64,000 bases of DNA from an uncultured Chloroflexia bacterium (GCA_963810095.1 CAWEMM010000007.1:128001-192000); one strand, 5' to 3'; counted from the stretch's first letter, positions 47,977 through 56,486 are shown. Program-made: numbers and translations. Notes: a model not told the origin generated them from the sequence alone.

Positions 47977-50900
47977 ATGCGCGGGCAGAGAGGCGGCAGC
48001 AACGCTCTCGATCGGAGCGGTGGCCGGGGGAGCAGGCTCCCTGTGGCCATTGTCGGAGTAGGCGCGATCCTTCCTGATGCGCCATGTGCGCCGGCATACT
48101 GGCAGAATATCCGCAGCCGGCGGTACAGCATCACCGAGGTCCCCAGTGACCGGTGGCGGATCGAGGACTATTACGATCCCGATCCGAGTGTCCGGGATAA
48201 GACCTACAGCAAAATCGGCGCCTGGGTGCGCGGCTTTACATTCGACTGGAAGGGCTTTCGGATCCCGCCGAAAGTCGCTGCTGCCATGGATGAAGGGCAG
48301 CAGTGGGCGGTGACCATTGCCGCCGAGGCCCTTGCCGATTACGGGTATCCGGCTCGTTCGCTCGATACGGAGCGCACGGGAGTCATTCTCGGCGCCGCAA
48401 TGGGTGGCGAGCTTCATTACATCACCGGCCTGCGGGTTTTCTTCCCCGAGTACGCCAACGCGCTGGCCGCGGTGGATGAGTTCCGGTCGCTGGGCCACGA
48501 ACAGCGGGCCGCGCTCGTCCAAGGGCTGCGCGGCTGAGGTCGACCGCCGGATCCCCGGCATCAGCGAGGACAGCATGCCCGGCGAGCTGGCGAACGTCAT
48601 CGCCGGCCGGGTTGCCAACGTTTTCAATTTCCGCGGCCCCAATTTCATTGCCGACGCGGCGTGTGCATCGTCATTCGCCGCGCTCGAATCCGCGTGTGAT
48701 CTCCTGGCCCACGGCAAAGCCGACGCCGTCCTGTGCGGCGGCGTCGACCGCAACATGGGCCCCTCAACCTTCGTCAAGTTCTGCAAGATCGGCGCACTCA
48801 GCGCAACCGGCACCCGGCCTTTTGGAGAGGGTGCGGACGGTTTCGTCATGGGTGAGGGCGCGGCCGCGTTCCTGCTGCGCCGCCTGGACGACGCGATAGC
48901 CGACGGCGACAAGATCTACGCGGTCATCCGTGGCATCGGCGCGGCCAGCGACGGTAAGGGCAAGGGCATCACCGCGCCCAACCCACAGGGCCAAATCCTC
49001 GCGGTGCGCCGGGGCTGGGAAGACGCCGGGCTGGATCCGGCGACGTGTACGCTCGTCGAGGCCCACGGCACGAGCACGAAGGTGGGCGACGTCGTCGAGG
49101 TGAACAGCCTGAGCGAAGTCTTTGCCACGGCGCGGCGGGGCAGCATCGGGCTGGGCTCGGCCAAAAGCAACGTCGGCCATCTGAAAGCCGGCGCGGGCGC
49201 GGCGGGACTGCTGAAGGCGGTTTATGCCCTGCATCACAAGGAACTGCCGCCGACGCTCAACGCCGAGCGGCCGAACCCGGCCATCGATTTCTCCTGCACG
49301 CCGTTCCGCCTGGTCCACGAGCCGGCTGCGTGGGAGCCGGATGGTGGGCTGCCGCGGCGCTGCGGCGTCAGCGCGTACGGCTTTGGCGGCACGAACTTCC
49401 ACGTGGTGTTGGAGGAGTACCGGGCCGGGCGAACTCGAGCAGGCGTCGCGCAGGTGAGCAGCGAGCGTCCGGCGGAGGCCGGCAGGTAGTTTTGCCGGGC
49501 GAAGTCGAAGGAGCGGAACTGCTCACGGACCTCTTCGCATCCTTCGGCGCGCACCGCGAAACAGCGGGCGGGAAACGTCAGCGAAGCTGACGCCCGCTCA
49601 GATGCTGGCCGCTGCCACTCCGCGGCGTGCTGGCGCTTGGCGCGGATGACGCCCGCAGGGCTTACGGGGCAGTTGGACGAAGTCGCCGGCAAGGTGGCCG
49701 GCGGCTGGCTTCCGCCGCCGGCCGCGCCCGCCGCGGTCGTGCTGTCTGCAGCCGAGCGCCTGGTGGTCGACTTCAGCACGCCAGAGGAACTGATCGAACG
49801 GATCAAGGCCGCCCGACAGGCGCTGCAGAGCGAGCAGCCCGCGGCCTGGCGGGCGCTGGCAAACCGCGGCATCTTCCGCGGCCGGGGCGAACCGGCGGGG
49901 AAGGTGGCCTTCCTCTTCCCCGGCCAGGGCAGCCAGTACGCCAACATGGGCCGCACGTTCGCAGACCTGCCGCCGTTCGCCGCGACCTTCGCCGAAGCGG
50001 ACGCAGTGCTGACGCCCATACTCGGGAGGCCGCTTACCAGCTACATCTTCAGCGACCCTGACGATGCGGCCGCGCTGCGGGCGGCCGAAGAAGCGCTGCG
50101 CCAGACCGCCATCACGCAGCCAGCCGTCCTGACTCTCGACGTCGCGCTCTGCCGCCTGCTGGCCGCGTACGGTTTCGCGCCGGACATGGTGATGGGCCAC
50201 TCCCTGGGCGAGTATGCCGCGCTGGTCGTCGCGGGCGTGCTGCCCTTTGCCGATGCGCTCGAGGCTGCGGCGGCCAGGGGCGCAGAGATGACGCGGGTGA
50301 GCATGGAAGACAACGGCTGGATGGCCGCGGTGATGGCGCCCCTCGACGTGGTGCAGGACATTCTCGAAGGTGTCGAGGGATATGTCGTGCCGGCAAACAT
50401 CAACAGCCTGGGCCAATGCGTGATCGGCGGCGCAAGCCGGCCGGTCGAGGACGCGATTGCGGCGTTCAAGGCCAAGGGCTTCGAGGCGCAGCGCCTCCCC
50501 GTGAGCCACGCATTCCACACCGCGATCGTCGCCCCGGCCAGCAAGCCCTTGCGCCAGGTCCTCGACCGTCTACACGTGGGGCCCCCGGCGCTGCCGGTCA
50601 TTTCGAACGTCACAGGTGACTTCCATCCCCACGACGTAAAGGGCATTAAGGACTTGCTCGAGCAGCAGATCGCCTCGCCGGTCCAGTGGGTGTTGGGGCT
50701 GGATGCGCTGTACAGGCACGGGTGCCGCACCTACGTCGAGGTCGGACCCAAGCGTGCGCTCAAGGGCTTCGTGGACGAGGTGCTGGGGACGCGCGAAGGC
50801 GTGAGCAGTGTGTTGACCTGTCACCCGAAGACGGGCGAAGCGGCCACCTTCAACCAAGCGCTGTGCAGCCTGTGGGCAGGAGGGTACGGGCTTGGATCGG

Positions 50901-53900: not shown

Positions 53901-56486
53901 GCGCCCTTTTGAGGTGGCCGGGCCCGGCGAGGGGCCGCCCACAGCCCGGCCCGCGCTCCACACTATCGGAACGCTCGAGGATGCCGACCGCATCGCCCGC
54001 CGCGTTCCTCGGGCTGCCCTGCGTCCGGCGCTCGAGCTCTGCAAGCCGACCGGCGTGGTCCTCGAGCAAGGCAGCCGAGTGGTGGTCATGCTGGACGAAG
54101 GGTGTGTGGGCACGGAGCTGGCCCACCGTCTGGCCGAGGCGCGCGTCGAGCCACTGCTGCTGGAGCCCGGCATCGATACTGCGTCCTTAACCGAGCGGCT
54201 GCGCGAGTGGCAGGCACAAGGTTCGATCCAGGGCGTTTACTGGCTGCCCGCGCTCGACGTCGAGCCGTCGCTCGACAGCATGGACCTCTCGGCATGGCGC
54301 GAGCTGAACCGCCGCCGCGTCAAGAACCTCTATGCAGCCATGCGCGCGCTGTACGACGGGGTGGCTCGGCAAGGCACCTTCCTACTGAGCGCAACTCGCC
54401 TGGGCGGCCTGCACGGGTACGGCGAGGACGGGGCAACTGCGCCGCTCGGCGGTGCGGTCACCGGGTTCACAAAGGCCTACACGGCCGAACAGGGGCTGGC
54501 CGCGGCCGGCACCGGTGGAAGCGGTCCGCTGGTCAAGGCGGTCGACGTCGCCGCGGGCGTACCTGATGCCCAGGTGGCGCGCTGGCTCATTGGCGAGACC
54601 CTGGTCGATCCGGGGATCGTCGAGGTCGGCTACCGTGACGGCCTGCGCTTCACAGTCAACCTGGAGGAGGAGCCGGCGCGCGATGGAGGCGCAGGGCTTA
54701 GTGCTCGGTCCCGAGACAGTCGTGCTGGTCACGGGCGCGGCAGGCGGGATCACGAGCGCGATCGTGGCGGATCTCGCCGCGGCAAGCGGCGGAAGCTTCT
54801 ACCTGCTCGACCTCGCGCCGCTGCCTGCGCAGGACGACGAACATGTGCGACTGTTCTGCGCGGGCCGTGAGGCGCTCAAGCAGGCGCTGATCGAGGCTGC
54901 CCGCAGGGCCGGCGGCAAACCAAAGCCTGCCGAAATCGACCGCCAGATCGCGGCCGTGGAGCGCCAGGCGGCCGCGCTGGCGGCGGTGCAAGCCGTCGAG
55001 GCCGCGGGCGGAAAGGCCCACTACCGCAGCCTCGACTTCCGCGATCTCGCCGCGGTGGAGGCCGTCATCGACGAGGTGCGCGCCGCGCACGGCCGCATCG
55101 ACCTGCTGGTCCACGCCGCGGGCCTGTTGATCGATAAAACGCTGCCCGACAAGCAGCCCGAGCAGTTCGACCTGGTTTTCGACGTGAAGGCCGACGGCTT
55201 TTTCAACCTGTTGAAGGCAAGCCAGGCCCTTCCCATCGGCGCGACCGTCGCATTCAGCTCGGTTGCAGGGCGCTTCGGCAATAACGGGCAGGCGGACTAC
55301 TCCGCCGCCAATGACCTGCTCTGCAAACTGACCCACAACCTGTCACACTGGCGGCCGGCAACGCGGGGCATCGCGATCGACTGGACGGCATGGGGCGGCA
55401 TCGGCATGGCGGCCCGCGGCTCGGTGCCGCAAATCATGGAGGCACTCGGCGTCGACATGCTCCCACCCGAGGCAGGCGTGCCAACCGTCCGCCGCGAGCT
55501 GACCTACGGGGCCGCCCGTGGGCGAGGTGCTCATCGCGGGGCGGCTGGGCGCCTGGCTTGAGGAGCGCGATGCCAGCGGCGGCCTGGACCCGAACAGGGT
55601 GGATGCCGCGCTCGGCGCTCAGGCGCGACTGATGGCGGGCCGGCTGGTGGGGACACCCTCCCACGGTGGGGTCGACATCGAGACCACACTCGACCCCCGG
55701 GCACAAGCGTTCCTGTACGACCATGCGCCCGACCCCGACACGCCCTGGCTGCCCGGCGTGATGGCCATCGAGGCGCTGGCCGAGTCGGCGCAGCTGCTCG
55801 CGCCTGACCACCAGGTGGCGGCGGTCGAGGACGTCCGGATGCTTGGGGCCTTCAAGTTCTTCCGCATGGAGCCGCGCACGCTCCATGTCGCGGGAACGGT
55901 GAGGCCGGTGGGCGACGAACTCCATGGGTCCATGGTCCTGCGCTCCGTCACGCAGCCCCTTAGGCCCGAGATGCCGGCGCAGGTGAAGGAGCACTTCGTC
56001 GGAAAGGTCCGGCTCGCCAGGTCGGTCCGCGAGCCCGTTCGCATCTCGCCCGAGGCCGTCGTGCTCCCGGAGTCAGCGCTGACAATCCGGGCGGCCAGCA
56101 TCTATCCGCCCTTCTTTCACGGTCCGGCGTACCGTGTAGTCGACGGGGCCACGGTTGCAGGCGGCCGGGTCGTTGCCCGCATGACCGCGGGCTTACCGCC
56201 CCAGTCAGCGCCGGCCGGTGCGGCAACGCTCATGGCGCCCCGCCTGGTGGAACTTTGCTTCCAGGCCGCCGCGCTCTGGAGTCTGCAGACGGCGGGTGCG
56301 ATGGCCTTCCCTGCAAGCCTCGCCAGCCTGGTCGTCTATCGCCAGGAGCCTCAGGAACCCGCTGACCGGCTCTGGTGCACGCTGGAGACGGGTGACGGAT
56401 CGACTTTTGAGGGCCAGGTGGTGGACGAAGAGGGCAACGTGTACGTGGCGTTGAAGGGGTACCGAACGATCGCCAGGCCGGGCTGA
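47977..56486 (+). CDS. Stand-alone type I PKS/FAS, KS-AT-KS-ACP-ACP-KR-DH (broken by about 8 frameshifts)
   Basis: AAGGAG RBS. KS1 [40 protein letters not shown]2 [23 protein letters not shown]; two ACPs [42 protein letters not shown]....WLPGV. Consecutive overlapping ORFs span 47977-56486. Confidence 0.9.
53255..53870 (+). repeat. Duplicated ACP-coding units (~53255-53490 and ~53630-53870)
   Basis: Near-identical protein ([67 protein letters not shown]); differences are mostly synonymous. Confidence 0.9.

Follow-up and report, generated by a model that had tools for sequence, protein, structure and literature searches.

A gene in a 64,000-nucleotide stretch of DNA from an uncultured Chloroflexia bacterium (GCA_963810095.1, CAWEMM010000007.1:128001-192000; the whole stretch is called the window below) encodes a single-chain type I megasynthase in which a ketosynthase (KS1), an acyltransferase (AT), a second ketosynthase (KS2), two acyl carrier proteins (ACPs), a ketoreductase (KR) and a dehydratase (DH) follow one another. 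We propose that this enzyme and its homologues are iterative, fully reducing fatty acid synthases (FASs) whose two ketosynthases (KSs) share the work of elongation, a reading for and against which we find the case evenly balanced. A first-pass annotation, made from the sequence alone, had regarded the architecture as not known. However, the domain order has been in print since 2011, when the combination KS-MAT-CLF-ACP(3-6)-KR (MAT, malonyl acyltransferase; CLF, chain-length factor) with a phosphopantetheinyl transferase (PPTase) was catalogued as the Type R secondary lipid synthase, product unknown (PMC3098273, available part), and the window gene has this one-gene KS-MAT-(CLF)-ACPn-KR order. 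The domain order is known and the function is not; what we add is a second KS that appears to be active, carriers with threonine at the attachment site, and a partner acyl-CoA dehydrogenase (ACAD).

Homologues were collected in two ways. A scan of species genomes gave at least 567 confirmed loci among the 598 matches listed, and the best 80 loci were analysed; a profile search gave 826 representatives (at 50% identity) at E <=1e-30, and the best 150 were examined. Names were looked up for 30 of these 150 representatives, most of which are nameless. Literature searches found no functional study of Type R, and the available parts of PMC7460792, 10.1101/2024.07.05.601840, PMC3250452 and PMC4882568 do not describe a function for this synthase family.

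KS2 retains its catalytic residues

The first-pass annotation had described two dissimilar, active-looking KSs in the protein, and the family bears this out. Among the 150 representatives, KS2 retains the Cys and the first His in 148 each, and the Lys and the second His in 149 each; the full Cys-His-His set is present in 147, one of the three exceptions being an incomplete sequence, so that a general loss of Cys or His from KS2 homologues was not seen. A Glu directly follows the first His in 148. KS2 is as conserved as KS1 (mean identity 0.65 vs 0.64, 78 loci), and in a quick tree of 37 rows its sequences group as a single long-stemmed clade separate from KS1, with a long branch to FabF that is possibly false. 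The nearest solved protein by sequence is FabF 2gqd (E 5.5e-30), and the nearest fold to a model of a homologue's KS2 is again a FabF (4b7v; TM 0.64/0.78, 22% identity). This model has a mean pLDDT of 72.6, with the active-site loop below 50, and is too weak to place the conserved Glu; it does predict a hairpin of about 50 residues, in agreement with the long helical insertion described in the first pass. A search of the ESM Atlas gave no family for KS2 beyond KS. Among the Atlas clusters nearest to KS2 by features, some are rich in diatoms and one has a Thermoplasmatota member, which we record as a lead only.

We hold with high confidence, on the strength of this conservation, that KS2 is catalytically active. 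Its 2011 label would make it a non-catalytic CLF (PMC3098273, available part), and the low Pfam KS scores of KS2 and its non-canonical HETY motif would suit that label. However, a CLF has lost its catalytic Cys and His, residues that are, with the Lys, almost invariant in KS2, and the identity of KS2 is on par with that of KS1. Furthermore, Desulfobacter-type members have a third KS, in which the Cys is present and the His motifs were not found, next to a retained KS2; the presence of this other CLF-like domain argues that KS2 is not the CLF, and we consider the CLF reading highly improbable.

Threonine at the carrier attachment site

Both of the tandem ACPs described in the first pass were confirmed, but it had been overlooked that each reads DLGID-T-VK, with Thr at the position of the attachment Ser. 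The main text of PMC3098273, in its available part, does not contain the words threonine, serine or dehydrogenase. We counted the attachment site with a hidden Markov model built from motif-matched repeats, which highly divergent carriers may escape, over 350 domains in 126 proteins of the 150 representatives, and found Thr in 333, Ser in 12, Gly in 1, Pro in 1 and a gap in 3; carriers were Thr-only in 117 of the 126 proteins. The Thr aligned with the attachment Ser (DS) of the PigH and CurA ACPs, and the carriers matched the Pfam family of PP-binding domains over its cut-off, yet lack the Ser that defines their site. All four Thr codons are in use at this position, so the Thr is not a genetic-code effect, and AcpP and another polyketide synthase (PKS) carrier of the same genome (G000) have Ser there. 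The rare members P0048, P0109, P0124 and P0137 have Ser in every carrier and offer natural controls.

The family PPTase, fused or adjacent in most homologues, keeps GxDxE and WxxKEA, which we take to be PPTase motifs. As 345 of the 347 filled attachment positions have a hydroxyl residue, with rare Ser, the hydroxyl is apparently used, and we judge it probable from these alignments that the carrier Thr bears the phosphopantetheine cofactor. We know of no natural Thr-phosphopantetheine and of no natural exception to attachment at Ser, though no literature search was aimed at this point. It is unlikely, in our view, that the Thr carriers stay unmodified, the enzyme using CoA thioesters or a stand-alone AcpP and the tandem domains being structural. 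This alternative would agree with the Ser attachment of known carriers, with the CoA-using family to which the partner ACAD belongs, and with the Ser-type AcpP encoded by G000, but it sits poorly with the hydroxyl-bearing site and its few Ser variants, with the retention of 2 to 6 carrier copies, and with a PPTase whose motifs are intact.

An ACAD as candidate enoyl reductase

In the best 80 loci of the genome scan, an ACAD gene lies directly upstream of the synthase in 60 of the 60 that have room for it; over all loci with room, some of which were fetched twice, the count is 94 of 108. The conserved operon has the order ACAD, synthase, PPTase and acyl-CoA carboxylase. The partner ACAD has a VLCAD/ACAD9-type fold (VLCAD, very-long-chain ACAD) with a VLCAD-type C-terminal extension and the catalytic Glu motif IYEGTSE; its best NCBIfam match is AcrC, below that family's cut-off, and its PDB matches include 1buc, 5ol2 and 6fah. 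Across 78 loci, pairwise identities of ACAD and synthase correlate at 0.95-0.96, and the ACAD and KS2 trees have 22 of 27 strong splits in common and none in conflict; of 31 KS1 splits, 2 conflict. In a FastTree tree, the synthases linked to an ACAD group as a single clade.

Other reductases occur in parts of the family. A fused N-terminal FabK-type barrel with the motif E-x-G-G-H was found in 17 of the 150 representatives, after one of 18 pattern matches was removed as a degenerate barrel. G216 (99% complete) branches within the ACAD clade yet lacks an ACAD orthologue, and its PPTase is adjacent to PfaD. In the ACAD-less clade, FabI is present in 10 of 10 genomes, vs 4 of 29 in the ACAD clade; no ACAD was found at its 9 loci with room, and no orthologue in 5 of 5 genomes searched. 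A search for FabV gave no match in the genomes, and none in the controls either. Several representatives (P0042, P0075, P0090, P0092, P0097, P0098, P0103, P0104 and P0121) have an N-terminal extension of 250-360 aa, without a Pfam match in the eight checked; it weakly resembles the first, degenerate barrel of the fused enoyl reductase (ER) and is probably a remnant left after the active barrel was lost.

Because the ACAD is upstream in nearly all loci with room and alternates with the fused FabK-type barrel, an adjacent PfaD or FabI, we think it likely, from gene order and phylogeny, that it would serve as the enoyl reductase. Literature searches found no report of an ACAD as enoyl-ACP reductase, and a complex prediction of ACAD, ACP and FAD scored 0.12 against a mark of 0.32, which we count neither way. 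An ACAD that works oxidatively, desaturating long acyl chains or making enoyl-CoA for the carboxylase, would leave the synthase with an unsaturated or branched product, or with another ER. Its VLCAD/ACAD9-type fold and catalytic Glu motif, the general knowledge that ACAD and carboxylase are a common catabolic pair, the probably aerobic life of many carriers, and the alternative reductase candidates in some genomes are in keeping with this role. However, the ACAD co-evolves with the synthase, and its place is taken elsewhere by three known enoyl reductases that are unrelated, with PfaD replacing it inside its own clade; we regard an oxidative role as improbable.

Coexistence with FAS II

The relation of the synthase to FAS II was surveyed in 151 genomes of the phylum of G267 (probably Myxococcota), 39 of which have KS2. 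FabZ exceeded its cut-off in 6 of the 39 carriers vs 81 of the 112 other genomes (20 of 39 vs 90 of 112 for any match at 1e-20), and FabD was found in 20 carriers vs 99 others. FabF, for which the search covered carriers only, was found in 13 of the 39, and 12 of the 39 lack FabF, FabZ and FabD altogether. Just three KS matches were found in G345, two of them within this synthase, and in the clade of G345 the synthase gene lies among housekeeping genes, as read from sequences of open reading frames (ORFs). FabZ was found in 16 of the 50 carrier genomes of the species-genome scan (best 80 loci). Bradymonabacteria have been reported to be without FabB/F and FabI/L yet to grow on marine agar (PMC7460792, available part).

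Proposed function

From the sequence features, conservation, gene linkage and distributions that we observed, we infer the following catalytic steps. The AT would load malonyl on the tandem carriers, which would probably be phosphopantetheinylated on Thr by the family's own PPTase. KS1 and KS2 would each carry out malonyl condensations on chains of a different length, one acting in priming or on short chains and the other on long ones, as two active KSs do in the synthases of polyunsaturated fatty acids (PUFAs) (PMC11962503, available part). KR and then DH would process the condensed chain, and enoyl reduction would be left to a partner that varies: an adjacent PfaD, a stand-alone FabI, a FabK-type domain fused to the synthase or, in the clade of the window copy, a VLCAD-type ACAD acting in reverse. 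The window copy would draw its ACAD and PPTase in trans from the operon of a second copy on contig C9, described below. A long saturated acyl chain, destined for membrane lipids or secondary lipids, would be the most likely product.

The first-pass annotation had assigned a different task to KS2, and here we depart from it. In that scheme, which resembles Pks13 or OleA, the chains made by KS1 would be condensed in pairs, head to head, by KS2 to give a ketone, a diol or a branched lipid; the carboxylase could here provide alkylmalonyl. The retention of KS2 in every architecture, even beside a KS and CLF-like pair, the Glu after its first His, a possible general base like that of OleA, the long helical insertion predicted for it, the lack of a release domain, and coexistence with a full FAS II in 8 Chloroflexota genomes would all be compatible with such a product. 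However, the AT is of the malonyl type in 18 of 18 aligned, by the motif HAFH that we take to indicate it; KS2 has the His-Lys-His set for decarboxylation; and in several loci the carboxylase is swapped for a single-chain acetyl-CoA carboxylase (ACC) with ACC_central. Neither an acyl-AMP ligase nor a thioesterase (TE) nor an Ole partner is conserved nearby, and the synthase is the sole recognisable candidate for making ordinary fatty acids in several genomes, the dozen carriers in which canonical FabF, FabZ and FabD were not found fitting an ordinary fatty acid product. We therefore lean toward two KSs that share elongation and consider head-to-head joining unlikely. A starter condensation by KS2, also named in the first pass, may still apply.

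Several points weigh against the shared-elongation fatty acid synthase that we favor. Standard PPTases are not known to modify Thr-substituted ACPs, and E. coli ACP is reportedly no longer modified once its Ser is changed to Thr. CoA esters are the normal oxidation substrates of ACADs. No thioesterase or second AT accounts for release of the product. The contrast between FabI and ACAD is one between two clades and so reflects few independent events. Other genes could serve as ER, namely sub-threshold FabK/NMO-like genes in 22 of 49 genomes and PfaD elsewhere in the genome in 5 of 29 ACAD-clade genomes, and two metagenome loci have neither ACAD nor another reductase partner. The ER-fused forms were examined as protein records, and an ACAD may lie beside some of them. 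Genes for an electron-transfer flavoprotein (ETF) are neighbours in 6 loci only and do not belong to one type, which leaves a dedicated ETF partner unsupported. That FabZ/FabA, FabI, FabK and PfaD were not found in G000 with the queries used speaks for this reading, but the assembly is 88.5% complete. In the phylum of the window, 10 of 251 genomes have the synthase and 8 of these also have a full FAS II (FabZ, FabF, FabI); FabA/FabZ was found in 0 of 41 relatives of G000 and the synthase in only 7 of the 41, so the lineage cannot have it as its obligatory FAS.

These counts rule out, for the window's phylum, that the synthase replaces FAS II everywhere. It is apparently an optional, mobile module that is able to stand in for FAS II. 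The related Type S has been proposed as a possible core FAS of Desulfobacterium autotrophicum (PMC3098273, available part). That Types R and S together would form a further de novo route to fatty acids, on one chain with two active KSs, carriers modified on Thr by their own dedicated PPTase, and a swappable ER for which one large clade uses an ACAD in reverse, replacing FAS II in a number of bacterial lineages and present as a complete, ACP-dependent type I synthase in some Asgard and Thermoplasmatota archaea, is a tentative idea that we doubt somewhat more than we trust.

The window gene and its second copy

The catalytic motif positions given in the first pass all proved correct by motif check and Pfam, as did the split of the KR (Table 1). 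The active-site Cys motif of KS1 is DAAC. The DH has Glu in ELCFQ, at a position where PKS DHs usually have Asp.

Table 1. Positions of the synthase gene and its domains, counted from the first letter of the window
Feature	Position	Strand	Residues and remarks	Basis
Type R megasynthase gene, KS1-AT-KS2-ACP2-KR-DH	47977..56486	+	Frame broken, probably by assembly	Pfam, tblastn, homologue ORFs
KS1, PfaA-like	48040..49435	+	Cys codon 48662; His in EAHGTST 49058-49078; GHL 49175
KS1-AT linker	49420..49660	+	In-frame TAG 49487-49489; several compensating indels
AT, malonyl-type	49910..50761	+	GHSLG (Ser 50201); HAFH 50507	Pfam, motifs
KS2, FabF-like fold	51245..52781	+	Cys 52014 (NAAC); SHETYT 52455; TKGFTGH 52560 (Lys and His); LAAGFG 52734
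KS2 helical hairpin insertion (predicted)	~51745..51900, approximate	+	~50 residues; helices 160-189 and 193-212 of homologue	Mapped from homologue's model
ACP1	53266..53478	+	Thr codon ACG 53359-53361 at phosphopantetheine attachment position
ACP2	53644..53856	+	Thr codon ACG 53737-53739 at attachment position
KR catalytic subdomain	54719..55441	+	GAAGGI 54734; YSAAN 55298; structural subdomain upstream
DH, PKS-type double hotdog	55626..56483	+	His 55722; Glu in ELCFQ 56250

The joining of the broken frames into one protein stood insofar as there is one synthase gene. However, the five frame changes that tblastn placed against intact homologues (at ~48531, 51878, 53040-53205, 54700 and 55520) do not suffice for it, as the KS1-AT linker has in addition an in-frame stop and compensating indels. 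In short-read contigs that are 97-99.5% identical to the window, one base is absent at each of 48531, 51877-8 (seen in two runs) and 55520; every one of these is a single contig at a depth below 4. The extra base is missing at three breaks in this comparison, but none of the contigs listed settles the linker. The assembly as a whole has 18 frameshifts in 46.5 kb over 33 genes (about 0.39 per kb), with 11 of the 33 genes broken; excluding six pieces of the synthase, 13 remain in about 35.5 kb. Two genomes of the same genus have a syntenic orphan copy, which in one of them stays open over 2104 codons until the contig ends, and dN/dS against the orthologue of a congener is 0.08-0.21 over five pieces. 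In 33 of the best 80 loci the synthase is one ORF of more than 2550 aa.

The breaks are probably assembly errors, and the gene is very likely intact in the cell. A decaying duplicate, that is, a pseudogene stripped of its operon partners, would account for the in-frame stop, the frame changes (five or more), the indel cluster in the linker, and the lack of an ACAD or PPTase beside the window copy. The near-identical short-read contigs at three breaks (thin as each is), the assembly-wide frameshift rate, the orphan copies kept by two congeners and the low dN/dS all speak against decay, which we consider quite improbable.

The 64 kb of the window yielded no match to an ER, TE, PPTase, carboxylase or ACAD domain with the queries used. 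The description as a stand-alone synthase holds to this extent for the window copy, but not for a second copy of the synthase in G000 (C9:244620-253370; locus L081, 242826-254378), which is about 70% identical in DNA, has an ACAD upstream and a PPTase downstream, and contains three frameshifts. Nor is a lack of partners true of the family, as ACAD, PPTase and carboxylase genes flank most homologues. An ACAD-linked copy is likewise present in both congeners that carry the orphan copy, which suggests that a supply of partners in trans is feasible. The window contains an orphan paralogue whose partners sit with the second copy on C9. Judged by its best homologues, the host is probably a Chloroflexota of the Anaerolineae type. 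Also encoded in G000 are FabF, FabH, AcpP and a frameshifted FabD. A further type I PKS cluster of this genome (L085, C11:79172-88395) has two KS-AT units and one Ser-type ACP motif.

A promoter scan upstream of the window gene gave 0 sites. NUDIX and endonuclease/phosphatase genes lie upstream of the synthase and PAS/histidine-kinase genes downstream. The upstream genes are a divergent pair at 46340-47632, an endonuclease/exonuclease/phosphatase on the minus strand and a NUDIX gene on the plus strand from about 47168, with overlapping long ORFs; both are syntenic in two congeners. At 59635-63906, on the minus strand, is a gene for a large Kelch-repeat/glucose-sorbosone dehydrogenase-like protein, apparently split by frameshift.

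Spread and gene content of the family

In 2011 Type R comprised members from Koribacter, Solibacter, Elusimicrobium and Roseiflexus (PMC3098273, available part). In 34 long homologous ORFs we counted 2 ACPs in 6, 3 in 13, 4 in 8, 5 in 5 and 6 in 2; with two in the window copy and 2-6 in its homologues, the 2011 range of 3-6 ACPs is too narrow. The PPTase is absent beside the window copy, next to the C9 copy, and present in 44 of the 80 loci, many of which end early. The P1b' motif hShxH of Type R PPTases reads LSISH in the C9 PPTase and is matched by 37 of 42 homologues. L069, a genome bin of Roseiflexus sp., falls in the same clade as the closest homologues of the window copy.

The carboxylase is encoded by three genes or as a single chain of 1750-2030 aa with ACC_central. 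A single chain of this kind, with the order biotin carboxylase, biotin carboxyl carrier protein, central domain and carboxyltransferase (eukaryotic ACC-like), lies directly behind the synthase in L029, L032, L034, L035, L050, L061 and L028; five of the seven were domain-scanned, and that of L028 is in pieces. In L045, L053, L056 and L060 the ACAD is directly preceded by a FabH gene, which may have a bearing on priming.

Named members include ones from Desulfobacter, a Bradymonadaceae bin, Acidobacteria, and Asgard and Thermoplasmatota records. The first pass had drawn a link to atypical Chloroflexota lipids; the family is not specific to Chloroflexota. MBA2665313.1, from the Bradymonadaceae bin, is complete, with the order ER-KS-AT-ACP2-KS2-KR-DH-PPTase. 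Complete or near-complete members labelled Asgard, Heimdallarchaeota or Thermoplasmatota are P0033, P0034, P0085, P0091 and P0184, with labels that come from protein records and possible misbinning; P0033 reads ER-KS-AT-KS2-ACP2-KR-DH-PPTase. The Asgard records MEA2070463.1 and MBD3189419.1, for which misbinning is also possible, are sisters in both KS trees (SH-aLRT 99-100). A metagenome scan with the Asgard protein gave 5 distant loci, none with a fused ER.

Significance

The family may represent an unrecognised way of making fatty acids. If the Thr carries the cofactor, the rule of attachment at Ser is broken, and the PPTase/ACP pair would be a possible orthogonal tool for synthase engineering. 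If the ACAD is an enoyl reductase, it would form a new class beside FabI, FabK, FabL, FabV and PfaD. If the product is an ordinary fatty acid, the family would explain lineages scored as fatty acid auxotrophs, such as Bradymonabacteria. Archaea seem to encode no type I FAS, according to the available part of a 2024 preprint (10.1101/2024.07.05.601840), and members in Asgard, Heimdallarchaeota and Thermoplasmatota-labelled records bear on the lipid divide. As cultured carriers were already named in 2011 (Roseiflexus, Solibacter), these readings are testable.

Comparison with known systems

The closest match is Type R (PMC3098273, available part), with which the family shares the one-gene order KS-MAT-(KS-like)-ACPn-KR, the downstream PPTase of the homologues with its hShxH motif, and a nearby carboxylase; the Roseiflexus sp. 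record L069 has the same protein. Set against that description, the "CLF" is here an intact KS, a DH is present at the C-terminus, the carriers have Thr, and an ACAD lies upstream. The window copy further differs in having two ACPs and no adjacent PPTase.

With PUFA synthases and HglE the family shares a PfaA-like KS1-MAT, tandem ACPs, a KR and a PKS-type DH, and homologue L001, which has the PfaA-like order KS-MAT-ACPn-KR-DH, scores 1044.7 against TIGR02813 (cut-off 1010.1). Elongation shared by two active KSs, which we propose here, occurs in PUFA synthases (PMC11962503, available part). However, the second KS is here FabF-like, without a CLF partner, and is placed within the chain between AT and ACPs, and the family has no FabA-type DH pair, no PfaB-type AT, usually no PfaD, and Thr carriers. 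Neither the PfaC KS-CLF with two FabA-type DHs nor the PfaB AT nor PfaD was found in the window, and the FabA family and PfaD were not found in G000.

FabF (KAS II) is the best match of KS2 in sequence and fold and shares its Cys-His-His set, but KS2 is fused, has HETYT for HGTST and a predicted helical insertion of about 50 residues, and scores 125 against the 494-bit cut-off of TIGR03150. Pks13 has in common a type I KS-AT core with a linked acyl-CoA carboxylase. It differs by its single KS, its TE, its acyl-AMP ligase partner and the lack of KR and DH; the window gene does not have the make-up of such a condensase, and the score is 439 against a cut-off of 2100. Fungal and corynebacterial FAS I have the order AT-ER-DH-MPT-ACP-KR-KS, which no architecture found here matches. 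Finally, butyryl-CoA dehydrogenase/EtfAB and the acryloyl-CoA and caffeyl-CoA reductases are ACAD-family flavoproteins that reduce enoyl thioesters. Compared with these, the partner ACAD has a VLCAD-type C-terminal extension and no conserved ETF beside it, and it would act on long chains bound to a carrier.

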